Source: Minisyncoccota bacterium
GTDB taxonomy: Bacteria; Patescibacteriota; Minisyncoccia; Phycocordibacterales; VMEP01
Direction: 5' to 3'
DNA: 64,000 bases
Assembly: GCA_041661305.1 (NCBI GenBank)
Contig: JBAZUR010000001.1
Span: 99,833 to 163,832, forward strand
The stretch's first letter is position 1. Each line of letters starts with the position of its first letter. Of this stretch, positions 7,481 through 47,880 are shown piece after piece. The position numbers and the translations under genes were made by a program. The notes beneath the pieces are model-generated. The model had not been told where the DNA came from. It saw only the letters and a program-made list of their open reading frames with translations, and did not search any database.

Positions 7481-8332
7481 ATGGACTTTGGGCTTCCGGT
7501 TCAAAAAAAAGCACCCACAGCCCGGGATCGTCGGCGCAAGGTGTTAATAAAAAAAGTATCAATAACGCTCGTATCGTTTTTGGTGTTTTTCGGTATTTTT
7601 TCTTATGTAATGAATTTTTCTCCGCTTCGCGTTGAAAAGGTTGTTATCTTCGGCACAAATATCGTGCCAGAGGGTGAGGTGGCGGAGGCGGTAAATACTC
7701 TGATTTCTGGTAAATATTTTTTTCTTATACCAAAGAATAATGTTTTCTTTTACCCCAAAGAGAGACTTAAGAATGATTTGCTAAGTAAGTTTAGTCGAAT
7801 CGAGGCAGTGTATCCGGCGCTTGATAGAGGAAATATTTTGGTTATCACTGTCGCGGAACGTTCTCCGAAATATGTTTGGTGTGGCAAGGAAAACAGGAGA
7901 GATGTTTCTACCCACGAGGAGTGTTATTTTATGGATAAGGATGGTTATATCTTCATTAAGTCTCCAGATTTTTCCCCAAATGTTTTCTTTAGGATTTATG
8001 GTGAACTTGCCTCAACAACCGAACCGATAGGAGCAAGAGTTTTTTCTCCAGATGAATTTGTAAGAATTATGGATTTCAGGAGCGCTGTTTCAAGTATTGG
8101 TTTTAGTCTGAAGGCAGTTGTGTCTTTGAAAGATGGAGATTACGAGTTCGTTCTCAGTAATGGAGGAAAAATTCTTTTTAATTCAAAAAATGATTTTGAT
8201 AAATCTGCCGACAACATTCGTCTAGCTGTTACCTCGGCTCCGCTTTTTGACGAATTAAAAGCAAAACCAAACCAGCTTCTATATATAGACGTGCGTTTTG
8301 GGAACAAGGTCTTCTATAAATTTGACGATTAG
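7481..8332 (+). CDS. FtsQ/DivIB-like cell division protein (POTRA domain, N-terminal TM)
   Basis: Basic N-terminus, single TM, POTRA-like segment VEKVVIFGTNIVPEGEV. Confidence 0.55.
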   Translation: MDFGLPVQKKAPTARDRRRKVLIKKVSITLVSFLVFFGIFSYVMNFSPLRVEKVVIFGTNIVPEGEVAEAVNTLISGKYFFLIPKNNVFFYPKERLKNDLLSKFSRIEAVYPALDRGNILVITVAERSPKYVWCGKENRRDVSTHEECYFMDKDGYIFIKSPDFSPNVFFRIYGELASTTEPIGARVFSPDEFVRIMDFRSAVSSIGFSLKAVVSLKDGDYEFVLSNGGKILFNSKNDFDKSADNIRLAVTSAPLFDELKAKPNQLLYIDVRFGNKVFYKFDD

Positions 8333-8409
8333 GTTAAATTCTCACCTCTTTTAATTTTTGCAATATTGTTGTAGCTTGTCGGTAGGCACAATTTATCTGG
8401 AGGGTTCCC

Positions 8410-8883
8410 ATGAATAATAGTACGGCTTTTCGTTTTCCGATTGGGCTTGCTTACACGCTTTCGGTCGCCGTTGTTGAGGCGATACAGCACAAGCGTAGCT
8501 TTGTCGGCAAGAACGACCTCAAACGACTTCTTGAGTGGTACCAGAACGCAGCGTACCCCTGGAACGCCGCTTTGTTTTCGCGGGAAGGCACAACCGACGA
8601 AGGGCAGGCGCTCTATATTTTGATGAGGCATGTTCACTCGAAAAACGCAGTGAACGGTGTTCGTCAAAGGGTATCGCTCGTAGCTCGGGTTGCCGAGTTC
8701 ATGAGCAGATTTCCGAGGAAAACTTACTCGCATCACGACTTCCACTTCGTACTCGATTTCTTCAACGATTTGTCCATCGAAATAATGAAGTACAGGCGTG
8801 ATGTCGGACGGAGAAAGAGAAGGGCTCGGGCGGGGATGAAAATTGCGCACATCAAAAACAGGATGGCGCACGCGCGGATTTAG
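8410..8883 (+). CDS. Hypothetical basic protein in GC-rich foreign cassette A (157 aa)
   Basis: GGAGGG Shine-Dalgarno 5 nt before ATG; Arg/Lys-rich C-terminus; followed by terminator; GC far above flanks; ORFs open in several frames, so a structured RNA cannot be excluded. Confidence 0.4.
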   Translation: MNNSTAFRFPIGLAYTLSVAVVEAIQHKRSFVGKNDLKRLLEWYQNAAYPWNAALFSREGTTDEGQALYILMRHVHSKNAVNGVRQRVSLVARVAEFMSRFPRKTYSHHDFHFVLDFFNDLSIEIMKYRRDVGRRKRRARAGMKIAHIKNRMAHARI

Positions 8884-8895
8884 TCCGCAGATTAC

Positions 8896-8923
8896 AAAGG
8901 GGCGCTTCGGCGCCCCTTTTTTG
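8896..8923 (+). terminator. Rho-independent terminator GGGGCGCTTCGGCGCCCC + T6
   Basis: Perfect GC-rich hairpin followed by TTTTTTG. Confidence 0.8.
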
Positions 8924-8963
8924 TATCCGACAGAAAAAAACAACTTATGCTAATATCGGGCAA

Positions 8964-9929
8964 ATGAAAGGATTTTGGGGAAAGTTGAATAAGCCATTTT
9001 TTGTTTTGGCACCAATGGCCGATGTCACCGACGCGGCTTTTCGTCGTATCATCGCAAAGTATGGCAAACCAGATGTTTTTTGGACAGAGTTTGTTTCCGC
9101 TGATGGTTTGTGTAATCCAAAAGGGCGAGAGAAGCTTTTGATTGATTTGTCATACACAGAAGCGGAACGTCCGATTATTGCGCAAATTTTTTCTTCTAAA
9201 CCAGACAATGTTCGCGAAGCCGCAAAACTAATTAAAGAATTGGGCTTTGATGGACTCGACATAAACATGGGTTGTCCAGATAGGACGATAGAAAAACAAG
9301 GCGCGGGTGCTTCGCTTATGAAGAATCCAAAACTCGCGCAAGAAATTATCCTCGCCGCGAAAGAAGGCGCAGGGGATATGCCAGTATCTGTCAAAACACG
9401 CCTTGGGTATAACAAAGATATTCTAGAAGAATGGCTCCCGGCTCTACTTGAGACTAAACCAGTCGCGATAACCGTGCATGCTCGCAACAGAAAAGAACTG
9501 TCGGATTTTCCAGCACGATGGGAAATGGTTGCGCGGGCGGTGGAGATTCGCAACGAACTAAAGAGCGATACTTTAATTCTTGGTAATGGCGACGTTAGAG
9601 ATATTGCCGATGCGAAAAGAAAAGTAGAAGAAACTAGCGTTGATGGGGTGATGCTTGGACGAGCGATTTTTGGCAATCCATTTCTTTTTGGTAGCGACAA
9701 GAGAGAAGTATCAATAAAAGAGAGATTGGAAATAATGGTTGAACATACGAAACTTTTTGAGGAATTATTTAAAAACGAGAAAAATTTTGCCGTGATGAAA
9801 AAGCACTACAAAGCGTATGTTCACGGATTTGATGGAGCAAAAGAGCTCCGAGTTGAGTTGATGGAAACAAAAACAGCCAAAGAAGTTGAGGAACTTGTGA
9901 AGAAGTTTCTAGGTGGTAGGGGTGCGTAG
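8964..9929 (+). CDS. dus: tRNA-dihydrouridine synthase (Dus family)
   Basis: FVLAPMADVTDAAFRRI, TIM-barrel FMN motifs, catalytic Cys in GCPD; 321 aa. Confidence 0.85.
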   Translation: MKGFWGKLNKPFFVLAPMADVTDAAFRRIIAKYGKPDVFWTEFVSADGLCNPKGREKLLIDLSYTEAERPIIAQIFSSKPDNVREAAKLIKELGFDGLDINMGCPDRTIEKQGAGASLMKNPKLAQEIILAAKEGAGDMPVSVKTRLGYNKDILEEWLPALLETKPVAITVHARNRKELSDFPARWEMVARAVEIRNELKSDTLILGNGDVRDIADAKRKVEETSVDGVMLGRAIFGNPFLFGSDKREVSIKERLEIMVEHTKLFEELFKNEKNFAVMKKHYKAYVHGFDGAKELRVELMETKTAKEVEELVKKFLGGRGA

Positions 9930-10004
9930 AAACGTTGTAATAAATTTTTGAAGGAATAGAATTAAAGGAGCAGTACAAAACGTATAAAAAGAAAGGAGAG
10001 ACGT

Positions 10005-10427
10005 ATGAGCACGTCACTTGATGTAAAGTTCTTTGCAAAACTCGAGTGTCGTTTAGTGAAACCAGCTTGCTGTGTGGCTGTCGCTACAGTCATCAAGTCA
10101 CAGTATGGTATCCACGACGACGTGGATGTTGTCTTGTGTCGCTTCAGGCGGAGAGAAGTGGCCAAATCATCTTTTCAAGAAGTGTTTGAGGTAATCCGCT
10201 TTTTACCGGAGGATAAAGAGCTAGCTCTCAAATTTTTTCCGCACGGACCACCATTTTTGAATAGTGGTCCAGCATGGAGAGAAACAACCGGATGGCTTGC
10301 CCATGTAGTGAATTCGGACAGACCAATTCGAGAACTTGAATTTGTGCGGATTGAAGAGTATCCCCAAAGGACTCTACCACCGCATTTTAGGGCGAGAGTT
10401 TTCTACAACGCTCCTGCCTTGCGTTGA
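10005..10427 (+). CDS. Hypothetical protein, GC-rich cassette B (140 aa)
   Basis: AGGAGA SD 5 nt upstream; TTGTAA-N16-TAGAAT promoter-like element upstream; no family recognised. Confidence 0.45.
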   Translation: MSTSLDVKFFAKLECRLVKPACCVAVATVIKSQYGIHDDVDVVLCRFRRREVAKSSFQEVFEVIRFLPEDKELALKFFPHGPPFLNSGPAWRETTGWLAHVVNSDRPIRELEFVRIEEYPQRTLPPHFRARVFYNAPALR

Positions 10428-10430
10428 GGC

Positions 10431-10484
10431 CCCAATTTTGTTTGTCGATCTAATCGGCTGACGGAGTTGGGGCTTTTGTTTACA
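10431..10484 (+). terminator. Hairpin GCCCCAA...TTGGGGC followed by TTTTGTTT
   Basis: 7 bp GC-rich stem with long loop and U-run after cassette B. Confidence 0.4.
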
Positions 10485-10547
10485 GTTTTGATATCTTGTG
10501 GTAGCATTTTCCCGGGAATGTTCCCGTAAAACACAAGAAGGATAGTG

Positions 10548-11039
10548 ATGCAAAATCGCACAATAGTAACGGTGTCATCGACGCTGGTTTTCGATCTCGA
10601 GAAGAAGATCGAGGCGTATCTGAAGTCGCACGAGTGGCGTCGCCTGATTCACCCGCAGTTGGGTGATGATTTCCTTGTCACTCTCTGGAGCGAAGGAAAT
10701 GTCCTCGGTGGCCTCGGCAAAGACGGCTTCGTCGAAATCGAGCGCAACAAGATTCCGGGGAAAAAGAACATCACCCGGGCTGTCTCGACCAGGAAGGCGG
10801 TGGAAAACTGTCTGAATGGAACCATTCGCGTTCGCGCTCTCGAAACGCACGAGCTTGTCGAAGTGGTCCAGGGCTGGGCTCTGCTGTCGATTCCCGATGC
10901 GGTGAAGGCGAAGGTCATCAACCACCGCACTGGCGAAGCCAACAACAAGGCGAAGCAGTTGAAGTTGCGTTTCCAGGGCAAGTCCGGCATGGTGCCAGGG
11001 CACGCTTCGATGGAAATCACGGGCCAATCGGCAAGTTGA
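10548..11039 (+). CDS. Hypothetical protein, GC-rich cassette C (about 163 aa)
   Basis: AAGGA SD; GC about 57%; no family recognised. Confidence 0.45.
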   Translation: MQNRTIVTVSSTLVFDLEKKIEAYLKSHEWRRLIHPQLGDDFLVTLWSEGNVLGGLGKDGFVEIERNKIPGKKNITRAVSTRKAVENCLNGTIRVRALETHELVEVVQGWALLSIPDAVKAKVINHRTGEANNKAKQLKLRFQGKSGMVPGHASMEITGQSAS

Positions 11040-11143
11040 TCGGCACCTGTAGACGGCCAATCGGCCTAGTTCAACGGCTTGCGCACAGAAACGTTTTTAG
11101 TTAGTATGTGCCCTGCCGTTCAACCAGAAGAGGAGAAGCACCG

Positions 11144-11338
11144 ATGCATCAACAAGGTTCAGGTTCATCACGCAGTTTTGCAGCCCGACGCGCGAATTAC
11201 TTTGCGGGACAGGGCACGCAAGCACAGCCGATGTCGGGGGGAACAGGGGTCGCCGCAAATGATCCCAAGGCCACTTCCGCCGAAGAAGAAATCGTCGTCG
11301 ACCCGAAAGAGTCGCCGGCAAAGCACCAAAAGCAGTAA
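11144..11338 (+). CDS. Hypothetical small low-complexity protein, GC-rich cassette D (about 64 aa)
   Basis: GAGGAG SD 8 nt upstream of internal ATG; G/S/A/Q-rich, predicted disordered. Confidence 0.35.
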   Translation: MHQQGSGSSRSFAARRANYFAGQGTQAQPMSGGTGVAANDPKATSAEEEIVVDPKESPAKHQKQ

Positions 11339-11437
11339 GTCGGCCACGGCCGATTAACAGGTCCGCAAATCGTCAATCGACGGGGAGCGGGCCTTTTTCA
11401 TTTGGCGAGCTGAACTGATATAATCATTTTTACGAGA

Positions 11438-12508
11438 ATGAAAAATTCAAACGAAAATAAAGCAATGGAAAATGTTGCGTTCTATCGCAAATATCGTCCG
11501 CAGAAATTCGCGGACGTTTTAGGACAAGAGCACGTTGTTTCTGTTATTGAGAATTCGCTTTCGTCTGAAAGCATAGTTCATGCATATCTTTTTGCCGGTT
11601 CTCGCGGAACGGGCAAAACTTCAATCGCGCGCATTCTTGCTCGCGAACTCGGCACGTCGGACAATGACCTATACGAAATAGATGCCGCATCAAACCGTGG
11701 AATCGATGATGTCCGCGCATTGAAAGAATCGGTGCAGTCTCTACCTTTCGATTCAAAGTACAAAGTTTATATTATCGACGAGGTTCATATGCTCACCAAA
11801 GAAGCTTTTAACGCGCTTTTGAAAACTCTTGAAGAACCTCCAAAATATGTAATCTTCATTTTAGCGACGACTGAAATTGAAAAATTACCAGAGACGGTTG
11901 TGTCGCGTTGTCAGGTTTTCCAATTTAAAAAACCATCTCTTGAAACGTTGCGCGGGGTGATAGAAAAAATTGTTAAATCTGAAGGATACAAAATAGAGAA
12001 ATCAGCGGGGGAGCTTATCGCTCTTTTGGGCGAAGGTTCGTTCCGTGACACGCAGGGGATTTTGCAAAAAGTGATCGGACTTTCAAAAGGGAAGGAAATT
12101 ACTCGCACGGAGGTAGAGAACATCACCGGTGCGCCAGCGACAGAACTCGTGCGTGATTTTATTTTGGCGATTGCAACGCACGATTTGGAACGCGGGCTTT
12201 CTGCGGTGGGGAATACAGGAAAAGAGAATCGCGACATGAAGGTATATGCCAAACTCGTCTTGCGACAATTGCGCGCAGGGCTACTTTTGAAATATGCACC
12301 AGCGGGAGCAGAAAGTTTACTTTCAGATTTTGACGAGGACGAAAAGAAGTTTTTGAACACTCTCATTAAAGAAAATGGCAAGAATATCACCTCGGCGGTT
12401 TTAATAGAACTTCTCACCGCATACCAGCTTCTCGACTATTCTTACATCCCAGAACTTCCTTTAGAACTTGCTCTGATTAAGATTGTCGGGCAAAATGACC
12501 GAAGTTAG
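11438..12508 (+). CDS. dnaX: DNA polymerase III subunit gamma/tau (short form)
   Basis: AAA+ clamp-loader motifs GSRGTGKTS, DEVHML, SRC; 356 aa. Confidence 0.9.
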   Translation: MKNSNENKAMENVAFYRKYRPQKFADVLGQEHVVSVIENSLSSESIVHAYLFAGSRGTGKTSIARILARELGTSDNDLYEIDAASNRGIDDVRALKESVQSLPFDSKYKVYIIDEVHMLTKEAFNALLKTLEEPPKYVIFILATTEIEKLPETVVSRCQVFQFKKPSLETLRGVIEKIVKSEGYKIEKSAGELIALLGEGSFRDTQGILQKVIGLSKGKEITRTEVENITGAPATELVRDFILAIATHDLERGLSAVGNTGKENRDMKVYAKLVLRQLRAGLLLKYAPAGAESLLSDFDEDEKKFLNTLIKENGKNITSAVLIELLTAYQLLDYSYIPELPLELALIKIVGQNDRS

Positions 12509-12566
12509 TTAAGGGCTTTAGGCTTTGCTAATAAGCTAATCCCTAAAAGCTAACAGCTGTATTTAT

Positions 12567-12637
12567 TGGGGGATCGTCTAACGGTAGGACATGAGCCTTT
12601 GAAGCTCAGTATCTAGGTTCGATTCCTAGTCCCCCAG
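12567..12637 (+). tRNA. tRNA-Gln (anticodon UUG)
   Basis: Manual fold: 7 bp acceptor TGGGGGA/TCCCCCA, D-arm GTCT/GGAC, anticodon stem TGAGC/GCTCA with loop CTTTGAA, T-arm CTAGG-TTCGATT-CCTAG, discriminator G; no encoded CCA. Confidence 0.85.
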
Positions 12638-12639
12638 TT

Positions 12640-13398
12640 ATGAATGATTTTATAAAATCATCTGTTGATTGGTTTAAAGAGAAAACTAATAGTTCCCTGT
12701 ATTTTACTTATTTTGTTTTTGTTGTTGTTTGGAATTGGAAAACATTTTTCACTTTATTTTTTGAGGACGCCTCTCTTTTTGAGGCGCCTAGAGTTGAGTA
12801 TGTGTTAACCAATTTCGGGGTACACTTTTATGCTACTGAGGAGATTATTCTTTATCGGGTTTTAGAATTTTTTACAAACATCATATGGCATGCAGGAGTA
12901 CCAATATTACTTACTTTTTGGGCGGTAAAATATTTACCTAGATTTAATGCATGGGCACATGAAATTGAAGTGGAAAATTACTATAAAAGGAAGCGCGTTT
13001 ATGACGCCAAGAAGATTACGTATGAAGAAGAAAAGACTTTCTTTTTAAAAACAGAAGCGGAAGAAAAAATAAAACAGAAGACTGCAAAGGATTCCATTCA
13101 GAAATCTCAGACTCAAGAAGAAAAATGGGAGTCTGAATTTTTGAGAATTGACGAGGAAGATGTTCGTGCGATTCAGGTTGGGGTTAGTACTATTTATGGA
13201 AAATCAGGACACTTTACGACTGATCCATTAAAAATGGCAGCAATTTCACAATATGGTAAGTACATCTCGCACGATTTGTATGCACGCCTTGATTCTATGA
13301 ATCTCATAAAAAAGGATAATAACAACTCAAGTAAAATAGAATTCACCGAAAAGGGAAAGTATTTTGTTCGTAAATTACAAGAACAAAAGAGGGTTTAA
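12640..13398 (+). CDS. Hypothetical protein (N-terminal hydrophobic segment), first gene of tRNA-Gln-adjacent island
   Basis: ATG 3 nt after tRNA 3' end; 252 aa; no family recognised. Confidence 0.5.
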   Translation: MNDFIKSSVDWFKEKTNSSLYFTYFVFVVVWNWKTFFTLFFEDASLFEAPRVEYVLTNFGVHFYATEEIILYRVLEFFTNIIWHAGVPILLTFWAVKYLPRFNAWAHEIEVENYYKRKRVYDAKKITYEEEKTFFLKTEAEEKIKQKTAKDSIQKSQTQEEKWESEFLRIDEEDVRAIQVGVSTIYGKSGHFTTDPLKMAAISQYGKYISHDLYARLDSMNLIKKDNNNSSKIEFTEKGKYFVRKLQEQKRV

Positions 13399-13502
13399 AG
13401 GGTAATTTTTGGTTCGTCGTTTAAGTTTGAGATAATTTTCGACTTTGAAGGGTGGGGATAGTGTTTCGCATTCTGTTATATGGCAATTTGGAATAATACA
13501 CA

Positions 13503-13748
13503 ATGGAATATTATGATGTGTATATGCCAAGAGCAATTTATACAAAAGACCATAACGAAATTGTTGAACGCTTGAAAAAGGCGCGACTTAAGGCTGGTTT
13601 TGGGCAGGTTGAGGTTGCAGAAAAACTTGGTAAAACTCAGTCTTATGTTTCTAAGATAGAATCGGGACAAAGACGTTTTGATGTTTTGCAGTTGAAAGAA
13701 TTTGCAAAAATATACAAGAAAAAAATCGATTATTTTATTTCTGACTAA
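13503..13748 (+). CDS. XRE-family HTH controller (C) protein of the R-M module
   Basis: 81 aa with HTH AGFGQVEVAEKLGKTQSYVSKIESGQR; ends 3 nt before the putative restriction endonuclease gene. Confidence 0.7.
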   Translation: MEYYDVYMPRAIYTKDHNEIVERLKKARLKAGFGQVEVAEKLGKTQSYVSKIESGQRRFDVLQLKEFAKIYKKKIDYFISD

Positions 13749-13750
13749 AT

Positions 13751-14785
13751 ATGAAACTAGAACCAAAAAATGTAGTGGAGAGTTTACATAAAATTATGTG
13801 CTCTTCTACGAGCACCCAAGCTGACGCGAGAGTTGATAATAATGATTACTTTAAGAGACGCGTGCTTGGTTTTAAGGCAGAAATTGAATTTGAGAAACTT
13901 ATTGAAAACTATCAAAACATCCAATTTCTTGAGGGAGGACAACTTATATCAAAAGCTCTTTCTGGATCAGCTAGTGATTCAAATAAATTTATATACACTA
14001 CACTTTCTTATGATAAACCAGAGAAATACTTAGAAGTATATAAAGCTGTTTCAAATTGGTCAGATGTTGGCGAAATGTTTTATTTGGAAACAAATGACAA
14101 GTGGACTTATGGTGAACTTCAAGTTAAAGATACATCTACATCTCCAAAAAGAGCAGAAAAGATACTCAAACCTAGTTGTATTTTTTGGATCTATAATAAA
14201 AGTAAGGCAATTTTCGAAAAGCATATTGAGCAAGATTACGGCTGTGTTCTTAGCGGTTTTGAAAATTCAGGTAGAGAACCTTCCGTCTTTCCTTTGAGGA
14301 AACGTGAACAGTTTGATTATTTTTTGGAATATAACATCGATATACTTAAAAAAATATATGCTACAAGATATTTCCTCGATGTAGTATTAAGGAAAGCAAG
14401 TAAAAGAAAAATTATAGATTTTGATGGATTCCTAAAATACAAGCAAGGGCTATCACTCATCGAGATAAAAGAAAAAACACCAATTGTTGGTGAACGGGAT
14501 CCAGCCGATCAAATGCAGTGGAAATATGGCTGGGACTCGAGAAGAATTTTATGGTATCTATATTTTTCGAGTAAGATTAATATGCCAATTATTTATAATG
14601 TTCGACATATTAACAACAGGACTGAAAGAAAATTTATTCAGTGGGATTCTATAACCATTGATACTTTTCTTTCTGGATCTGATTGGTCAAAAGGTAGAGG
14701 AGGCGGAGGTGGGGAGGATACTATGCTTGCCCCATATCTTTTCTTTGAAAGAGTAGAAAAAACACTTGAAAAACTTAATCGGTAA
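13751..14785 (+). CDS. Putative Type II restriction endonuclease (PD-(D/E)XK-like)
   Basis: Position between C protein and convergent MTase; candidate catalytic motif FD...IEIKEK (D-X12-E-X-K); 344 aa. Confidence 0.5.
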   Translation: MKLEPKNVVESLHKIMCSSTSTQADARVDNNDYFKRRVLGFKAEIEFEKLIENYQNIQFLEGGQLISKALSGSASDSNKFIYTTLSYDKPEKYLEVYKAVSNWSDVGEMFYLETNDKWTYGELQVKDTSTSPKRAEKILKPSCIFWIYNKSKAIFEKHIEQDYGCVLSGFENSGREPSVFPLRKREQFDYFLEYNIDILKKIYATRYFLDVVLRKASKRKIIDFDGFLKYKQGLSLIEIKEKTPIVGERDPADQMQWKYGWDSRRILWYLYFSSKINMPIIYNVRHINNRTERKFIQWDSITIDTFLSGSDWSKGRGGGGGEDTMLAPYLFFERVEKTLEKLNR

Positions 14786-16433
14786 ATGCTAAGTTTTTAT
14801 TTTTAGCTAACACTTTACTGACACTAGCTCTTTTTATTTTCTCAATATCTATTCTACCTAATTTATTAGAAGATTTCTCCTCCAATTGATTCAGAGATTT
14901 TAAGACTTCTTTTGCTAATGCTGTAATTACAGGCACAGCAACACTATTCCCAAATTGTTTATATGCTTGCGCATCGCTGACCGGTATCTTGAATGAATCA
15001 GGAAACCCTTGTAATCGTGCAGCCTCTCTAGGAGTGAGTTTTCGAGGATTTTTACTTTTTTGCTCAATGAGAATTTCTGAACCATCTTTATAATATCGTG
15101 CAGATATAGTACTTGTGTATTCTGAATTTTCATTAAACATAGAATATCCGAAACCGTTTCCTTTTTCCCTATGTTCTTTTTTTCTCCTTTGGTGCCCCGC
15201 CCACAACTTGTCGGATATCGTATATTTAGGATCAACCTTTTTTTCAAGAATATTTCCAAGGCGAGTTTTTATGCCCGAAGGTTCAGGAAAAGAAAAATTA
15301 GTTTTTCCTAAAAATCCTATTATATATATACGTTCTCTGTTTTGGGGAACACCAAAGTCTTTTGCATTGAGAACTTTTGAATAGACTTCGTAACCAAGTT
15401 GCTCAAGGATATTATTTATTGTTTCAAAAGTTCTTCCATTATCATGACTCTTAAATCGTTTAACATTTTCTAGAAAAACTACTCTAGGTCTGTGGTATTC
15501 AAGAATTTTAGCGATATCAAAAAATAACGTACCTCTTGTATCTGCAAGACCAAGTTTTTTCCCAGCTTGAGAAAATGGCTGACAAGGGAAGCCAGCAAGT
15601 AATATGTCAAAAGGTGAGATTTCTTCTGGTTTAAACTTGGTAATATCTCCAAACGGAATTTCGGCAAAATTTGCACGATAAGTTTTTTGCGCTGGTTCAT
15701 CCCACTCCGAACTGAAAACTGATTTCGCCCCTATACTTTCAAAGCCTGTTCTTATACCACCTATTCCTGCAAATAGATCTATGACTCTAAGTAATTTTTG
15801 TTGAGAATAATTTTGTTCTTTTTCCGTTTTTTCATTAATGTTTCTTACTATTTGGACAACTACACCTCGGACCTCAACTTCTTTTCTATAAAAAGGGAGC
15901 ATATTTTGATTTCTCGGCTCAAGGCGGAATCCTTTTTTTTCACGATAAAGTTTTTTTAACGTGGCTTGGTTTTCATCAATTATGGCTACAACAGTTTGGC
16001 CATCTTCTGCTACGTCTTGCTTTCTTATGACCACGATGTCTCCCTCAAAAATTCCATCATCCATCATACTGTTTCCAATGACACGGAGAGCATAGTAATC
16101 TTTGGAATTCTTAATATTGGGGTTTACTATCGATATAGTGTCCTGCCTATCTTCTATGGCTTCAATTGGCTGACCGGCGGCAATGGTTCCTAAAATAGGA
16201 ATTTCAAAAATATATTTTATATCTTTTTTGGGTGAAATATTTCTAGATAAATTTTCAGATTTTGAGAGGTAGCCTTTTTCTTTTAAATAGTGAATATGTT
16301 CATGTATTGTGGATATCGCTTTAAGCTTTAGCTTTTTCCTTATTTCTTCAAGGGTTGGCGATATGCCATTTTCAGCGATGTATGTATTTATAAAATCGAA
16401 GACCTGTTTTTGTTTTTTTGTTAGGTTTGCCAT
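14775..16433 (-). CDS. Fusion protein: full-length LexA repressor (HTH + S24 peptidase) joined to a C5-cytosine DNA methyltransferase
   Basis: N-terminus aligns to LexA throughout (LTKKQKQVFDFI; GTIAAGQP Ala-Gly site; GNSM Ser; TLKKL Lys). C-terminus has m5C MTase motifs I FAGIGG, IV GFPCQPFS, VI ENV, VIII QNRERIYIIG, X GNSVAVPV. Single 552 aa ORF. Confidence 0.85.
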   Translation of the reverse strand: MANLTKKQKQVFDFINTYIAENGISPTLEEIRKKLKLKAISTIHEHIHYLKEKGYLSKSENLSRNISPKKDIKYIFEIPILGTIAAGQPIEAIEDRQDTISIVNPNIKNSKDYYALRVIGNSMMDDGIFEGDIVVIRKQDVAEDGQTVVAIIDENQATLKKLYREKKGFRLEPRNQNMLPFYRKEVEVRGVVVQIVRNINEKTEKEQNYSQQKLLRVIDLFAGIGGIRTGFESIGAKSVFSSEWDEPAQKTYRANFAEIPFGDITKFKPEEISPFDILLAGFPCQPFSQAGKKLGLADTRGTLFFDIAKILEYHRPRVVFLENVKRFKSHDNGRTFETINNILEQLGYEVYSKVLNAKDFGVPQNRERIYIIGFLGKTNFSFPEPSGIKTRLGNILEKKVDPKYTISDKLWAGHQRRKKEHREKGNGFGYSMFNENSEYTSTISARYYKDGSEILIEQKSKNPRKLTPREAARLQGFPDSFKIPVSDAQAYKQFGNSVAVPVITALAKEVLKSLNQLEEKSSNKLGRIDIEKIKRASVSKVLAKNKNLAFTD

Positions 16434-16514
16434 ATTGCTAAAAAAATTTATTTGCGATACAGTTTATATTATAACCGAAAATAAACCGAAACATAAGGGC
16501 GACTTATCCACAAG

Positions 16515-17414
16515 ATGAAAAAAGGGAGAAATGAAAAATGTCCATGCGGAAGTGGTTTGAAATATAAGAAATGTCATATGAACAAATCCCGAGAGATTGG
16601 AGTATTACGCAAAGCATACGACATGGGTAAAGACCATGATTTTTATACTCGTTTTTTATTTGGTCTTGGCAACATCAGAAGTTGTGCATACGGAAGAGAT
16701 AAGCAACTTGAGTATGATAAAAGTTTTAGTCCGGTTTTCCAAAATCTAGTTGAAATGAATATTGTAAAAAAGAAATGCGTCGCACTTATTTCTCAACATC
16801 GTGAGGCGGTTGAAACAGGCAAAGATGGGAAATACCATGGTAACCAAATTGACGTAAACGAACCTATTGAGGATGAACTAAATATTTTCTTTAAGGACTT
16901 TTTCATTCGTGGTGAAATGGCAATAGGAAGTCTTATTGCACACTCGCGATACGTGGGATCAAATATCGGGTTTCTTTTTACGGACGACGAAAAGAAATTT
17001 CGCAAGGGATTGGCAAAATTTGTGTTAAACGAGAACGATGAGCGTTTTAAGGGGTTAAATGCGTTCATGAAGCATAATCGAACAACATGGTACGAATCTT
17101 TCAATGACCTTCGCAATAAAATTGAACACGAAGGGTGGCATTTGCCGAATTTGCAGTACACACTTGATTCAAATAATAAAGTGCAGGTTCGGTTACCGAC
17201 ATCCCCCAGTCAAACTATTGAAGAAATTTTGGAGTCATATTGGCAAAGCATGAGTATGTTTTGTGAGGAAGTCATCGTTTTTCTTTTGAGCCTTAAGTTG
17301 AAAGAAGACATGATTATTGTATTTATTCCAGAAGAAAAACGAGATAAAAATTTACCTGTTCGATATATTGTCAGTCATAAAGATTTTCCTGGTGTTTTGT
17401 TGCAGTGCGGGTAA
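16515..17414 (+). CDS. SEC-C motif (CPCGSG..KCH zinc-binding) domain protein, function unknown
   Basis: N-terminal CPCGSGLKYKKCH; 299 aa. Confidence 0.5.
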   Translation: MKKGRNEKCPCGSGLKYKKCHMNKSREIGVLRKAYDMGKDHDFYTRFLFGLGNIRSCAYGRDKQLEYDKSFSPVFQNLVEMNIVKKKCVALISQHREAVETGKDGKYHGNQIDVNEPIEDELNIFFKDFFIRGEMAIGSLIAHSRYVGSNIGFLFTDDEKKFRKGLAKFVLNENDERFKGLNAFMKHNRTTWYESFNDLRNKIEHEGWHLPNLQYTLDSNNKVQVRLPTSPSQTIEEILESYWQSMSMFCEEVIVFLLSLKLKEDMIIVFIPEEKRDKNLPVRYIVSHKDFPGVLLQCG

Positions 17415-17425
17415 AGGGAGCATCC

Positions 17426-17462
17426 CCGCCGTCTCCTATTTTTTCCCACGGCGGGGATATTG
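17426..17462 (+). terminator. Hairpin ATCCCCGCCGT...ACGGCGGGGAT after the SEC-C gene
   Basis: 11 bp perfect stem. Confidence 0.5.
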
Positions 17463-17494
17463 CGCGCGAACGAGGGGTGAGATGAATGGCATTT

Positions 17495-17551
17495 TCAAAA
17501 TGATATAATACGAAAATGGAAAAAGTACCTTATACAAACTTAACCGTATTT
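17495..17551 (+). repeat. Direct repeat copy 1 (about 57 bp): extended -10 TGATATAAT plus truncated 16-codon ORF MEKVPYTNLTVFVLEH
   Basis: About 86% identical to 19656-19712. Confidence 0.8.
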
Positions 17552-17600
17552 GTTCTTGAGCACTAACCATTAGATGAGCTCTTAGAATATATTACTTAAC

Positions 17601-19100
17601 ATGTCTTTCAAGTTATCAAAAACCAATTTTCTAATATGTCTTGATTGTGCAAAAAACGCATGGCTTAAGATTCATAAACCAGACATATACAAGAAAAAAT
17701 CTCCTTCTTCTTTTGAGTTAAACATCATTGATACTGGTAATCAAATTGACGAGCTTGCTCGTGATCTTTTCCCAAACGGAACACTTGTTGATTCTCGTGA
17801 GGATACGGAACTTACAAAAAAACTCATGGCCGATAAAATACCTGTAATTTATCAGCCAGTATTTGCTACAGAAAAATTTATTATCGCCTCCGATATTTTT
17901 GTTTGGAATGCGGATACAAATCTATATGATCTGTATGAAGTAAAATCTTCAACTTCTTCAGAAGAAGAGGGTGGAAGAAAAACTGAAGATTATTTGATTG
18001 ATATGGCTTTTCAAAAAAATATTCTAAATGACTTAGGTATTCAGATTGGCACTCTTAATTTAATTCGACTCAACAAAACATATGTTCGAATGGGAAATAT
18101 TGAGTTAAAAGAACTATTTTTTATTGAAAATTTTACTGATCAAGTAAACGAAAAACTTGAGGATATAAAACAAAAAATGGATGGTGCTTACGAGCTACTA
18201 TCTAAAGAAAAAGAACCGCAAGGGCACTGTGATTGTATTTTGAAAGGGAAAAATTCGCACTGCACGACTTCGTGGTATTCAAACTCTGATCTTCCCGAGT
18301 ACTCTGTTCATTCAATCGCTCGAATTCACAAGAAAAAACTAATTGAATTAGTTGATAGTAATATATTTAGTATTCATGATGTTCCAGACGGTTTTGAGTT
18401 GTCAGATAATCAACGAAGACAGGTAAATACCGCACAGTCGGGTAGGGAGTATATTGATAAGAATGGAATCTCAGAGTTTTTGGAGACTATGAAATATCCT
18501 CTTGCTTTTCTTGATTACGAAACATATCCTTCTGCAATCCCAAAATATAATGGATACAGACCATATCAACAAATTCCATTCCAATTTTCACTTCATGTTA
18601 TTGACTCGCCAACCAGTGAATCTGTTCACTATGATTTTATTTATACAGATCAAGAGTGCCCAGATACATACTTTTCTGAAGCATTAAAAAAGCATCTTCC
18701 AAAAATAGGAAGTATTGTTGTGTGGAGCCAAAGATTTGAAAAAGGTATCAATGAACAAATTGGTGAACGTTTGCCTGACTATAAAAATTTTATGCAGGAA
18801 GTGAATAATCGTGTAGTTGACCTGATGATTCCTTTCTTTGGCAAGACAACAATGTATGACCACCCAAAATTCAAAGGTAGTGCTTCAATAAAATATGTTT
18901 TGCCTGCTCTTGTTCCCACTCTGTCTTATAAAGATATGCACATTCAAGAAGGAGGTACGGCAGCCGACACATGGAATCGTATTGTGTCTGGAGAATATTC
19001 TGAAAATGACAAAAATATGAAAATACAAGCACTCAAGGATTATTGTCATCTCGATACTTTGGCGATGGTTGAAATTTGGAGAGTCTTAAAATCAGTTTAG
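17601..19100 (+). CDS. PD-(D/E)XK (Cas4/RecB-like) nuclease domain fused to a DUF2779 RNase H-like domain
   Basis: N-terminus CLDC and D..LYEVK motif; C-terminus LAFLDYETY...PYQQIPFQFSLH typical of DUF2779; 499 aa. Confidence 0.55.
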   Translation: MSFKLSKTNFLICLDCAKNAWLKIHKPDIYKKKSPSSFELNIIDTGNQIDELARDLFPNGTLVDSREDTELTKKLMADKIPVIYQPVFATEKFIIASDIFVWNADTNLYDLYEVKSSTSSEEEGGRKTEDYLIDMAFQKNILNDLGIQIGTLNLIRLNKTYVRMGNIELKELFFIENFTDQVNEKLEDIKQKMDGAYELLSKEKEPQGHCDCILKGKNSHCTTSWYSNSDLPEYSVHSIARIHKKKLIELVDSNIFSIHDVPDGFELSDNQRRQVNTAQSGREYIDKNGISEFLETMKYPLAFLDYETYPSAIPKYNGYRPYQQIPFQFSLHVIDSPTSESVHYDFIYTDQECPDTYFSEALKKHLPKIGSIVVWSQRFEKGINEQIGERLPDYKNFMQEVNNRVVDLMIPFFGKTTMYDHPKFKGSASIKYVLPALVPTLSYKDMHIQEGGTAADTWNRIVSGEYSENDKNMKIQALKDYCHLDTLAMVEIWRVLKSV

Positions 19101-19655: not shown

Positions 19656-19712
19656 CCAAAATGATATAATACAAAAATGGAAAAGGTACCATACACAAAT
19701 TTAGCCATCTTT
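19656..19712 (+). repeat. Direct repeat copy 2: TGATATAAT promoter plus start of an intact small membrane-protein gene
   Basis: Matches 17495-17551. Confidence 0.8.
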
Positions 19713-19829
19713 GCCCTTTTCTTTGGTGTTGCTCTTCTAGAAGCAATTCAAAGAAGTAATTGGATTGAAGCAGGCCTTTTTCTCGCCCTAGGTCTTTTAT
19801 TCCTCCGCGCAGATTTTTTAAAGAAATAA
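19677..19829 (+). CDS. Small hydrophobic membrane protein (50 aa), intact copy of the ORF truncated at 17516
   Basis: MEKVPYTNLAIFALFFGVALL...; stop overlaps next start (TAATG). Confidence 0.5.
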   Translation: MEKVPYTNLAIFALFFGVALLEAIQRSNWIEAGLFLALGLLFLRADFLKK

Positions 19830-30384: not shown

Positions 30385-30501
30385 GCCATATTTGATGGTT
30401 GGTTTGACATACGTTGTTTTTATTGTAGGGTGTAGGGGGTAGTTTTAACGTCGCGTCACTTTATTGTGTCGCTCGATGCACCTTACACGAGGAGGCGAAA
30501 G

Positions 30502-31047
30502 ATGAAGAAGAATAGAAGCGAAATTCTTGCGGGTGCCCGCGAGGCCTTCTTCTATGCGATGTTGCATGGTTGGGTGGCGGGCGGGGACCACAAGAAAGTG
30601 GTCAGAGTTCCTGGAAGTTTTGACAGCAAGGAGGTCTCTTATAGCGCCGGGCTTTTGTACAAAAGGAAGTGGTTTCTTGTTGTTGATCGCTACTGCGTTT
30701 CGGGCGCGGGAAAGTCTGCTGGCACAACAACAATTTGGCTCAGTCACGACCCGGTTTGGTTCATGAGCTACGGCGGTGCTTATCTGAAGGAGGACATCCC
30801 TTTCCTAAAGAATGCCCTTACTCGCGTTTATTCTGAGAAGCAGTTTTTCGGAGGACGTGGGCCGACGAGCCTTGCTATCCCGGCACATCACGTCAACGGT
30901 GGTGTTCTGGTTTACGCGAATGAAGTTGAGAAGGATAGCACCTTCGAAAAATTTCGCGGAAAAGAAGCAATCATCGGCCCATCGAAGGACGGCGGTTCTC
31001 CAGAATTTCGTGGTCACCACGATTACTGGGGGATGTCGCTGATTTGA
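30502..31047 (+). CDS. Hypothetical protein, GC-rich cassette F (181 aa)
   Basis: GAGGAGG SD 6 nt upstream of ATG; TTGACA at 30404; GC about 55%; no family recognised. Confidence 0.45.
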   Translation: MKKNRSEILAGAREAFFYAMLHGWVAGGDHKKVVRVPGSFDSKEVSYSAGLLYKRKWFLVVDRYCVSGAGKSAGTTTIWLSHDPVWFMSYGGAYLKEDIPFLKNALTRVYSEKQFFGGRGPTSLAIPAHHVNGGVLVYANEVEKDSTFEKFRGKEAIIGPSKDGGSPEFRGHHDYWGMSLI

Positions 31048-42655: not shown

Positions 42656-42717
42656 TTGGTATGGAATGTCTCGGGGGTCCCCGAAACAACGTAGTATCAT
42701 TAAAAGAGGAGAAGTCC

Positions 42718-43128
42718 ATGAAAAAGCTTCTGAGTGTTTTGTTTGCCTCGCTTTTCGCCCTCGTTTTCTTCGCGCCGTCGGCCTTCGCTGACCCCGGGAA
42801 GGGGAAGACGATGCTCGCCAACGCCAATGAAAGCAACGAGCCCGGGCAGGTCATCGCCGACGCGATGTGGGTGGCCGGCGGGGAAGACTATCAGGTCGCC
42901 GTCATCATTCTCGCCAAGAAGTACAACTCGAAGATGGACAAGAACTGCCGCGTCAAGAACTTCGACGTCGGGCTGGCGTCCCAGAACTACCGCTTCGTTC
43001 CGTCCGTCAACAAGGCCGTGCGTGACAAGATGATCCTGAAGCAAGTGGCCACGATGGGTTGCGAGATGAGCCCGTACATCCACAAGGAAGCCAAGACCGC
43101 CGCCATCCAGAAGATCTGGCGCATGTAA
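42718..43128 (+). CDS. Secreted hypothetical protein, GC-rich cassette G (136 aa, signal peptide)
   Basis: AGGAGA SD; signal peptide MKKLLSVLFASLFALVFFAPSAFA/DP; GC about 58%. Confidence 0.5.
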   Translation: MKKLLSVLFASLFALVFFAPSAFADPGKGKTMLANANESNEPGQVIADAMWVAGGEDYQVAVIILAKKYNSKMDKNCRVKNFDVGLASQNYRFVPSVNKAVRDKMILKQVATMGCEMSPYIHKEAKTAAIQKIWRM

Positions 43129-43340: not shown

Positions 43341-43943
43341 ATGAAAAAGCTATTTTTCTGTTTTCTTCTCACTTCTTTCTGTTCGGTTGTTTCTGCTGTC
43401 GAGATGAGGCCATTTCTCTTGGAGAATTACGGCTGGACCATCGACCTTGGCAACAAAGAAAAGAGCTTCTTCGGTTTTTCTTGGAACATTAACTGTCCCA
43501 AAAACGGCCAGATTTTTCCCAAGGAAGGAGTTAACGTCTTTCGTTTTCCGGTATGTGTTCAGAAAGATCGAACTTTTTGGACCGTTATTCTCTGGAGGAC
43601 AAACATGGTGGCACCGGAAGCAATCGAGAAGACGGTGTATAACGCCATGTCTGATGGGCTTGGTTACGGAAAGATTCTTTGTCGCGAGGAACTCGTGTCG
43701 TCTTTTATCAACGAGAGAGGGGTTGTGCGCGACTGTGCAGTCCCACTTCAGCACGGAACGTTCTATGTCTCCTTCTATCATTTCGATATTCTGATGCCGG
43801 CCGGTGGTTCGTTTGTCGACCAGAACGGGGAAAAGGAAAAAACTCTCGGCTTCACCATCTGGGTCCAAAATGCCGGAAACATCGACAGTGGCGTGAAGGA
43901 TAAGTTACGGGAGTTGATCTCGGCCATCAAGGGGAAGGAGTGA
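43341..43943 (+). CDS. Secreted hypothetical protein, cassette H (200 aa, signal peptide)
   Basis: AGGAGG SD 7 nt upstream; signal peptide MKKLFFCFLLTSFCSVVSA; GC about 47%. Confidence 0.5.
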   Translation: MKKLFFCFLLTSFCSVVSAVEMRPFLLENYGWTIDLGNKEKSFFGFSWNINCPKNGQIFPKEGVNVFRFPVCVQKDRTFWTVILWRTNMVAPEAIEKTVYNAMSDGLGYGKILCREELVSSFINERGVVRDCAVPLQHGTFYVSFYHFDILMPAGGSFVDQNGEKEKTLGFTIWVQNAGNIDSGVKDKLRELISAIKGKE

Positions 43944-47743: not shown

Positions 47744-47845
47744 TAAGTTTGGTAGGTTTTTGGATAACTATTTTATCCTTTACAAAAATAGGTAAAGTGT
47801 GTTAATCTTCATGCATCTTTGGCCGATGCAGGGCCATATCGGTAG

Positions 47846-47880
47846 TTAATAGGCACCTGTAGACGGCCTATTTTTTTTAT
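47846..47880 (+). terminator. Hairpin ATAGGC-ACCTGTAGACG-GCCTAT + T9 before typA; contains a 17-mer also found at 11042
   Basis: Stem-loop then TTTTTTTTT. Confidence 0.6.

Follow-up and report, generated by a model that had tools for sequence, protein, structure and literature searches.

The block described here lies in a Candidatus Paceibacterota genome, between dus and dnaX, within a window of 64,000 nucleotides (the whole stretch of DNA that was analysed). The left flank encodes Dus (PF01207, E 8e-62) and the right flank DnaX (DNA_pol3_delta2, AAA). Between them sit three plus-strand genes, here called B, C, and D, each with its own SD, as the preliminary description had it and as ORF calls, SD motifs, and public gene calls confirm. 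Public gene callers, applied to identical contigs, return the same genes of 140, 163, and 64 aa; NCBI labels the C product “hypothetical protein.” The frame originally proposed for D was right, and its actual start is at 11144. The genes do not overlap, and the intergenic gaps measure 104–117 nt (C–D 104 nt; B–C 120 nt if C is counted from its ATG). The features of the block are as follows:

9935..9962, plus strand: promoter-like element for B, TTGTAA-16-TAGAAT, 9/12 matches
10005–10427, plus strand: gene B, 140 aa, ATG start, AAAGGAG upstream
10426..10480, plus strand: intrinsic-terminator-like hairpin after B, stem of ∼23 bp, then UUUUGUU
10479..10507, plus strand: promoter-like element for C, TTTACA-17-TAGCAT with upstream TG, from promoter scan and alignment
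10510..10527, plus strand: inverted repeat in the C leader, CCGGGAA TG TTCCCG, conserved, and GGGAAnnTTCCC in relatives
10548–11039, plus strand: gene C, 163 aa from ATG, AAGGA upstream; a GTG at 10545 gives 164 aa
10575..11060, minus strand: antisense shadow ORF of 161 aa on the strand facing C, judged not to be a gene
11021..11061, plus strand: 41-nt element covering the 3′ end of C and part of the C–D spacer, 78% identical to 47831–47871, with the exact 17-mer GGCACCTGTAGACGGCC
11144–11338, plus strand: gene D, 64 aa, GAGGAG upstream, within the listed ORF 11108–11338
11335..11404, plus strand: two hairpins after D, the second intrinsic-terminator-like with a U tract, conserved in all loci
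11395..11424, plus strand: dnaX promoter-like element, TTTTCA-18-TATAAT, TG-extended, 10/12 matches, conserved in all loci

B, C, and D are genuine protein-coding genes. Because ORF length, position, and frame are preserved across about 10 independent lineages and third-position change is in excess, they are not chance ORFs, and the block is clearly something other than the random GC-rich DNA, devoid of conservation and coding coherence, that the preliminary description had named as the finding that would undo it. Across the three genes dN/dS is mostly 0.07–0.31: for B it is 0.07–0.21 (unsaturated pairs), for C 0.16–0.31, and for D 0.14–0.18 in three comparisons and 0.7–1.45 in others. In this sample of about 10 lineages, the ratios place all three genes under purifying selection.

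The products themselves say little about function. That of B is soluble and basic (pI 9.0), lacks a TM segment, and carries the invariant motif FFPxGPPFLNSGxAW..TT.WL; that of C is likewise soluble and basic (pI 9.7, charge +7). With pI values of 8.5–9.8 and no 19-residue window above KD 1.25, both would be soluble basic cytoplasmic proteins. The D product is Gly/Ser/Gln-rich, as first reported, and strongly hydrophilic (GRAVY −0.96), with a conserved N-terminal S.SFA.R(R/K)A.Y motif and an acidic tail; its composition suggests a peptide that is probably disordered. Remote homology searches and structure prediction, suggested in the preliminary description as a way forward, gave no family match and no usable model. 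Whether queried with single sequences or with every member of the alignments, Pfam, PHROGs, PADLOC, and NCBIfam returned noise only (EnY2 at E 0.1, phrog_34239 at E 0.005); PADLOC-DB v2 held no match to B, C, or D at E up to 1, and PDB profile searches again gave noise, at E 0.28 or worse. AlphaFold2, run with shallow alignments, reached a pLDDT of 47.3 for B and 49.5 for C (residues 10–90 at 58–79), and the models are unusable. B is unrelated to C (hhalign probability 0.3%), and the window's other GC3-rich ORFs are unrelated to both.

How are these genes expressed? The preliminary description saw a small operon, and here its reading does not hold. The promoter-like element that it noted before B is present, and relatives keep it as TTGTGA/TTGTAA ... 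TATAGAAT, despite differing genes upstream of B. The hairpins that it noted after B and after D were also confirmed by folding against shuffles: the B hairpin (10426–10476) folds at −31.9 kcal/mol (z −7.1, with 0/200 shuffles as good) and is kept in all relatives, and the D hairpins (11335–11394) fold at −33.1 kcal/mol (z −4.25) and are followed by UUUUUCAUUU. Directly after the B hairpin comes the C promoter-like element, TTTACA-17-(TG)TAGCAT/TAGTAT, near-invariant in all loci including the distant L020. It should be remembered that the promoter scan as a whole was not above shuffles (3 found vs 2.0 expected). In relatives, stable hairpins and U tracts also follow C. A single operon, with one promoter and no internal terminator, was rejected, since a predicted terminator and promoter lie between B and C in all loci. 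From the terminator after B, the conserved C promoter, and the hairpins that follow D and, in relatives, C, we predict that B, C, and D form separate units.

Seen this way, B is certainly, and C and D are in most lineages, a self-contained cassette with a predicted sigma-70-like promoter, an SD, and a predicted hairpin terminator. In the window itself C and D may be co-transcribed, since there is no convincing terminator between them there (no significant fold at 11005–11085, z 0.19). The D SD, AGAGGAGA, is conserved in both types of spacer. At 47831, the copy of the 41-nt element belongs to a terminator hairpin (z −2.5), of which it forms the 3′ arm. The inverted repeat in the C leader is a possible operator or 5′-UTR hairpin; its fold alone is not significant (z −1.4). 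On the right, the dnaX promoter-like element is the conserved anchor of the block.

The distribution of the block is narrow. At 90% identity, a set of 5.8e9 proteins yields 8 clusters for B, and 3 of 185,579 species genomes carry it; for C there are 4 representative clusters in a set of 1.84e9 (1.84 billion) representatives, and only 3 additional metagenome loci were found. On these homology searches, the three genes are shown to be private to one small clade of the ultra-small Paceibacterota (CPR) bacteria. In every lineage found the block is single-copy and directly upstream of dnaX, with the order B-C-(D)-dnaX syntenic throughout; all loci were recruited by B or C searches, which block-less relatives would escape. 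The conserved co-occurrence that the preliminary description had asked after is therefore present: B and C stand together in all lineages whose contig extends far enough, and D is missing only from L020, the most distant. Two misleading cases were set aside. The hit in L019 (Chloroflexota) is a spurious motif match in a membrane protein, and the seeming loss of C in L013 is a gene-calling omission, the DNA being identical to that of L014. IMG/VR viral contigs, INPHARED phages, and PLSDB plasmids contain no relatives, and a mobile-element origin was rejected on that ground. The same collections, together with the constant position in all lineages found, speak against the patchy accessory distribution typical of defence systems; the variable island of this region is on the opposite side of dnaX.

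The new finding of this analysis is a cassette-like exchange of alleles. The aligned loci show coding parts that are deeply divergent alleles, exchanged among lineages gene by gene. L007, L010, and L017 are 96–98% identical in the FtsQ-like protein and in Dus, 99–100% in DnaX, and 91–96% in B; in the same three, C is 44–54% and D 42–71% identical. Between L007 and L010, dS is 0.21 for dnaX, 0.23 for B, and 1.25 for C; between the window and L023 it is 0.03 for B, 0.045 for D, and 0.34 for C. The D of the window matches that of L017 at 93–95% nucleotide identity over most of its length, with flanks at 61–88%. Similarly, L014 and L017 share 43–77% nucleotide identity in B and 76–98% in C and D, and in L025 a B like that of the window (78%) stands next to a C like that of L014 (70%). 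A single B type is found beside three different C types, and a single C type beside two D types; C is the most allele-variable unit of the block. Identity falls and recovers within one 60-nt window of start and stop codons, placing the breakpoints at ORF borders; the coding DNA is less well conserved than the spacers.

A further property of the block is its base composition. The preliminary description called all three genes GC-rich, which stands for C and D, with GC at 0.56 and 0.57 where the other genes of the window average 0.40 (sd 0.04), and is overstated for B (0.47). The excess sits chiefly at third codon positions in C and, to a smaller degree, in D. GC3 is 0.71 in C and 0.54 in D against a window mean of 0.35, and ordinary in B at 0.42. 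Within C, GC1 is 0.57, GC2 0.39, and GC3 0.71, and the C alleles measured keep a GC3 of 0.65–0.72 even though synonymous sites are saturated. The raised GC is best seen as a property of the allele pool, which may reflect GC-biased conversion accompanying recombination or import from an unnamed source. The window holds several further small orphan ORFs of high GC3, of unrelated sequence, at 8410–8883, 30466–31047, 42661–43128, and 43341–43943.

Our best explanation of the whole, which we hold to be probable without great confidence, is that B, C, and D are real clade-private genes arranged as separate cassettes, with alleles that are swapped independently and a diversity that is probably selected. 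The swaps would proceed through homologous recombination, with the conserved spacers and dnaX as its anchors, and balancing or diversifying selection would probably maintain the allelic diversity. The most plausible reason for such diversity would be that the products act as targets or effectors in an antagonistic interaction with a phage, host, or competitor. We infer this role, and the deep allelic diversity is what keeps a conflict-related function in view. It is important to note that dN/dS, from about 10 lineages, is below 1 almost everywhere, which counts against an outright claim of diversifying or balancing selection, and that weak constraint combined with frequent recombination in these populations would account for the deep alleles just as well. 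A functional link between B and C is possible, since the two are always adjacent.

Known systems help to place the locus. Staphylococcus agrBDC, Bacillus comQXP, and streptococcal blp/com are allele-shuffled (“pherotype” or “specificity-group”) loci under balancing selection. The likeness lies in a fixed single-copy chromosomal locus in all clade members, with a small peptide gene included, and in divergent coding alleles that are bounded by conserved DNA and recombined, which sets the tree of the locus at odds with that of the genome. Unlike those loci, where the variable genes co-vary as a unit of peptide, processing enzyme, and receptor, with membrane proteins or kinases, B, C, and D re-assort independently, are predicted to be transcribed separately, and have neither TM segments nor a recognisable domain.

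Targets of diversity-generating retroelements (DGRs) are common in CPR and also present a locally hypervariable coding segment. Here, in contrast, variation spans whole genes at about 50% identity and does not consist of adenine-specific changes in a short C-terminal repeat. A repeat search of the window found no DGR template/variable repeat pair in 9900–11450, where the 41-nt terminator-like element was the only repeat, and a DGR target was rejected for that reason. The block also resembles CPR/Patescibacteria ORFans in general, being small and without domains, having homologues only in a narrow clade, and evolving faster than its housekeeping neighbours; it differs from them in its strict placement beside dnaX, its conserved regulatory spacers, its cassette exchange, and a GC3 about twice the genome average. 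A literature search found nothing on this locus, and the only comparable case that it brought up, a hypervariable CPR gene in PMC6851277, is repeat-based and differs in nature.

A bolder form of our explanation, which we regard as unlikely, would make this a clade-specific cassette locus for three independently expressed cytoplasmic proteins. Their diversity would be frequency-dependent and traded across species through the promoter/terminator spacers; the locus would then serve as a self/non-self or phage- or host-interaction determinant in episymbiotic CPR bacteria, and the high GC3 would be a footprint of biased conversion.

Of the alternatives, we give appreciable weight, short of preference, to one in which the three genes are functionally unrelated, weakly constrained, lineage-specific orphans in a recombination-active interval. 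Alleles and GC3 would then be neutral products of fast evolution, recombination, GC-biased conversion, or old horizontal acquisition, with neither diversifying selection nor a role in conflict. Other unrelated GC3-rich orphan ORFs are indeed scattered through the window, a 157-aa ORF beside dus diverges as much as B with no obvious allele swapping, and dN/dS below 1 is as this alternative would have it. The neighbours recombine too: at dnaX, L014 is as close to the others as they are to one another, yet it stands farther off in dus and the ftsQ-like gene. Against it, B and C keep their presence, order, and position in every lineage found, even L020, and the coincidence of breakpoints with ORF borders and the better conservation of spacers than of coding DNA do not fit it. 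A C gene that differs by 46–56% between otherwise near-identical strains is hard to obtain by relaxed constraint alone, and the GC3 of C, kept despite saturation, needs a sustaining force.

The preliminary description raised the possibility of a toxin/antitoxin- or defence-like trio in a small operon; a co-transcribed toxin-antitoxin or anti-phage defence trio is one that we now consider quite improbable. Small, adjacent, same-strand genes with a disordered or partly disordered product and lineage-variable sequences are what type II and three-component toxin-antitoxin systems have, high allelic diversity is seen in conflict systems, and beyond dnaX there is a variable island with restriction-modification or defence genes, here and in relatives. 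However, PADLOC, Pfam, NCBIfam, and PHROG hold no match, toxin and antitoxin families included, and the wide spacers hold a terminator and a promoter that split B from C. The block is also one fixed copy per genome, shows no mobility, never turned up on phage, plasmid, or viral contigs, and in L020 lacks D. Membership of the type II systems in particular was rejected: the predicted layout is not that of one transcript with tiny gaps, no known toxin or antitoxin family was matched, and the partners do not co-vary. The alleles of B, C, and D combine freely, contrary to the co-variation that cognate toxin-antitoxin or toxin-immunity pairs should show, and the three do not look like such partners.

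That the GC-rich stretch is a non-coding structured RNA, or that the real gene is the antisense ORF, is very improbable and largely refuted already. What invites the idea is a GC of up to 0.57 in a 0.40 genome, the 161-aa antisense ORF, which some gene callers choose over C, and a depletion of CTA and TTA codons in C. SRP RNA sits upstream of dnaX in some bacteria. With Rfam 15, only two tRNAs in the window reach the gathering score, and 8200–11600 holds nothing credible at E up to 10, so SRP RNA is unsupported. GC is concentrated at sense third positions, and the sense SDs and start codons are conserved; the raised GC is not a mark of non-coding or structural RNA. The antisense ORF is codon-aligned to C, such that its first position is the third position of C, where substitutions peak, and its frame is interrupted in L004 and L025; the substitution pattern and the two broken frames are the grounds for rejecting an antisense gene. 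Since TCA is not depleted, the CTA/TTA deficit fits ordinary UA avoidance. Finally, a mosaic created by chimeric metagenome assembly of co-occurring strains is almost certainly not the answer, for although all loci are metagenome-assembled and several lineages share samples, the B-C-D-dnaX combinations recur at 99.6–100% over 1.1–1.8 kb in independent assemblies from other samples and pipelines (recurrence counts: window type 4, L007 type 4, L010 type 2, L004 type 4, L014 type 2).

Small unannotated genes abound in CPR/Patescibacteria genomes, with very little to tell which of them matter, and this locus offers a clean case: genes with no detectable relatives elsewhere, yet fixed beside an essential replication gene, individually regulated by prediction, and allele-diverse. 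On present evidence the importance of a set of hypothetical proteins is modest. If the diversity is neutral, the locus still documents frequent homologous recombination with breakpoints at gene borders, together with an anomalous GC3, in a reduced genome. If it is selected, as our preferred explanation has it, the locus would mark a surface through which an uncultivated symbiont lineage interacts with phage, host, or competitors, and strains could usefully be typed by it. Should the bolder form hold, it would represent a new kind of self/non-self, phage-, or host-interaction determinant in episymbiotic CPR bacteria.

As read from its sequence, the noteworthy feature of this locus is that alleles have been shuffled one gene at a time, with breakpoints at the borders of ORFs, beside an essential gene. 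Three plus-strand orphan ORFs (B, C and D) of a Candidatus Paceibacterota (CPR) genome are present between dus and dnaX, as the preliminary description reported, each with its own SD-like sequence. The promoter-like element placed upstream of B was also found, and the hairpins noted after B and D are real, with folding energies far beyond those of shuffled sequences (z, energy relative to shuffles).

8964-9929, dus (PF01207, E 8e-62)
9935-9962, promoter-like element before B (TTGTAA-16-TAGAAT)
10005-10427, plus strand, B, 140 aa, SD-like AAAGGAG
10426-10476, hairpin after B, -31.9 kcal/mol, z -7.1, then UUUUGUU
10548-11039, plus strand, C, 163 aa counted from ATG, SD-like AAGGA
10575-11060, minus strand, antisense ORF opposite C, 161 aa, a codon-aligned shadow ORF
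11144-11338, plus strand, D, 64 aa, SD-like GAGGAG
11335-11394, hairpins after D, -33.1 kcal/mol, z -4.25, then U5
11438-12508, dnaX (DNA_pol3_delta2 plus AAA)
12566-12638, tRNA-Gln, downstream of dnaX

In three other samples with identical contigs, public gene callers arrived at the same three genes (140/163/64 aa). The C product is identical at NCBI to [quoted passage not shown]; an alternative GTG start lies 3 bases upstream of its ATG. Homologues of B are 55-95% identical and those of C 64-89%, with remoter C alleles at 31-47%. In codon-aligned comparisons, third-position change is in two- to three-fold excess. For unsaturated pairs, dN/dS is 0.07-0.21 in B and 0.16-0.31 in C; for D, three pairs give 0.14-0.18 and three others, with few substitutions, 0.7-1.45. 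The GC of C at its three codon positions (GC1/GC2/GC3, 0.57/0.39/0.71) gives a coding-frame signature. Judged by such comparisons, B, C and D are genuine protein-coding genes, and the conserved homologues and coding-type substitution pattern exclude random GC-rich DNA, the case against them that had been raised earlier. The antisense ORF was rejected as a gene: its first codon position is the most variable position of C, and its frame is interrupted in two C alleles. CTA and TTA codons are deficient in C and TCA is not, which fits avoidance of UA. No Rfam family matched the block, even at E up to 10.

The searches portray extremely narrow families and clade-restricted orphan genes. The B profile recovered 8 clusters among 5.8 billion proteins, and B is present in 3 of 185,579 species-representative genomes, a fourth match (L019, Chloroflexota) being spurious. 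An exhaustive HMMER search with the C profile yielded 4 representative clusters out of 1.84 billion. JGI metagenomes supplied 3 more loci; IMG/VR, INPHARED phages and PLSDB plasmids held no further B/C loci. Looking for co-occurrence of the three genes, as had been proposed, revealed a fixed order, B-C-D-dnaX, in every locus with a contig long enough except L020, the most distant relative (B'-C'-dnaX, D absent); all loci were recruited by a B or C query, and relatives without the block escape such sampling. Some genomes carry extra genes between dus and B (a 175-aa ORF, a membrane protein, large CARDB-like or Gly-rich secreted proteins), and B-C-D itself stays joined to dnaX.

Within this fixed order, per-gene identity matrices and a 60-nt sliding comparison show that the coding regions of B, C and D have histories unlike their flanks and unlike one another. 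Three of the relatives' loci, L007, L010 and L017, belong to near-identical strains (FtsQ-like 96-98%, Dus 96-98%, DnaX 99-100%, B 91-96%), among which the C proteins are 44-54% and the D proteins 42-71% identical; between L007 and L010, dS is 0.21 for dnaX, 0.23 for B and 1.25 for C. The FtsQ-like protein of L023 is identical to that of the window, with dS between the two of 0.03 in B, 0.045 in D and 0.34 in C. The window's D matches that of L017 at 93-95% nucleotide identity over most of its length (flanks 61-88%), and its C matches that of L007 at 80-89% across most of the gene (B mostly 60-70%). Between L014 and L017 the B alleles are unrelated (43-77% nucleotide identity) and C and D near-identical (76-98%); in L025, B resembles the window's (78%) and C that of L014 (70%). 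Identity drops and returns at start and stop codons, and the spacers keep 93-100%. Assembly chimeras can be ruled out as the source of these mosaics, since other samples, independently assembled, reproduce each allele combination at 99.6-100% identity. We infer that one coding cassette would be swapped per event, out of a pool of old, divergent alleles, by homologous recombination with its anchors in the conserved spacers.

The single operon envisaged earlier is not supported, because a predicted terminator and promoter part B from C in all lineages. The B-C spacer keeps the terminator hairpin, then a promoter (TTTACA-17-TAGCAT/TAGTAT, TG upstream), then a leader with an SD; the C leader contains the inverted repeat GGGAAnnTTCCC. 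Stable hairpins with a U tract follow C in the L014 type (-34.5 kcal/mol, z -6.2) and the L007 type (z -3.4). The window's own C-D spacer shows no significant fold (z 0.19), which leaves room for co-transcription of C and D in this genome. The dnaX promoter (TTTTCA-18-TATAAT) and the terminator after D are conserved everywhere. Together, the predicted promoters and terminators favor a division into two or three transcription units.

A 41-nt element at 11021-11061 (C 3' end/C-D spacer) is 78% identical to 47831-47871, with the exact 17-mer GGCACCTGTAGACGGCC; the second copy is the 3' arm of a terminator hairpin, followed by U8, upstream of typA/bipA (47890-49680), and at 11021-11061 the 5' arm is absent. 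Among the loci fetched, this element is found only in window-type and L004-type C-D spacers. In the relative L005, a MITE-like, AT-rich perfect palindrome of ~100 nt (1700-1800) is inserted after the D terminator and ahead of the dnaX promoter, on a scaffold that has an N gap within dnaX.

GC rises from about 0.37 to 0.57 over 10500-11400. The description of a GC-rich three-gene block is right for C (0.56) and D (0.57) but not for B (0.47), whose GC3 of 0.42 is ordinary (other genes 0.35 +/- 0.09). Across measured alleles the GC3 of C stays at 0.65-0.72 despite synonymous saturation between them, so something sustains it. Plausible causes would be GC-biased gene conversion, acting at a recombination-active locus, and continual import from a hypothetical GC-richer pool; no donor was found in any database.

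A 157-aa orphan ORF at 8410-8883 (plus strand, GC3 0.62, no Pfam match) lies between an ftsQ-like gene and dus. It is kept in relatives as a 155-158-aa gene (42-93% identity), has a codon-aligned antisense shadow ORF at 8329-8943, and its tree follows the flanks, unlike those of C and D. Other small plus-strand ORFs are GC3-rich against a genome GC3 of 0.35: 42661-43128 (0.82) and 43341-43943 (0.58), with signal-peptide-like N-termini and no Pfam match, and 30466-31047 (0.57), which matches DUF5680 (E 6e-8). These last are paralogous neither mutually nor to B, C or D. Small genes with high GC3 seem to recur as a class in this genome.

On the opposite side of dnaX from the block, past tRNA-Gln, lies a variable/defence island; on its predicted gene content, the region is a variable hotspot for defence or integration. 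GC falls to 0.32-0.35 over 12566-19000, and gene content differs in each relative: AIPR and MutH in L007, an S24 peptidase and SduA_C (Shedu-like) in L010, DUF2779 in L013, and in L017 a methyltransferase-like ORF, inferred from sequence motifs only. In the window, one 552-aa ORF (14775-16433, minus strand) unites a LexA DNA-binding domain with an S24 peptidase and a C5 cytosine DNA methylase (E 1e-109). Next to it are an HTH_3 protein and an ORF of 344 aa without a Pfam match (13503-13748 and 13751-14785, plus strand), and the whole looks like a restriction-modification module with the methylase fused to a LexA-like repressor. A 62-nt direct repeat (17496-17557 and 19657-19718, 84% identical) with a TATAAT-like box includes the apparent start of two paralogous ORFs.

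Structure prediction and remote homology search, suggested at the outset, yielded no assignment by homology or by fold: B, C and D have no match in Pfam, NCBIfam, PHROG, PADLOC or PDB, and AlphaFold2 models of B and C reach pLDDT 47-50. B and C are mutually unrelated, soluble and basic (pI 8.5-9.8), without a TM-like segment, and the charge of C is consistently about +7 to +9. D is hydrophilic and probably a disordered peptide; its N-terminus bears a conserved S.SFA.R(R/K)A.Y motif and its tail is acidic. The block may instead consist of orphan genes under weak constraint in an interval active in recombination, a neutral alternative supported by the several other GC3-rich orphan ORFs, unrelated in sequence, that the window contains. 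As far as PADLOC models cover them, known defence systems are excluded, and a toxin-antitoxin reading is disfavored by the lack of any family match, by the predicted terminator and promoter between B and C, by the single copy in a fixed place and, most weightily, by free allele re-assortment, which is incompatible with cognate pairs. With low confidence, we suggest that the likeliest functional class is a role in an interaction, either antagonistic or one of recognition. It is ranked first for the universal retention at one site, the individually conserved regulatory DNA and the deep, re-assorting alleles, features expected where balancing or diversifying selection acts on a locus.
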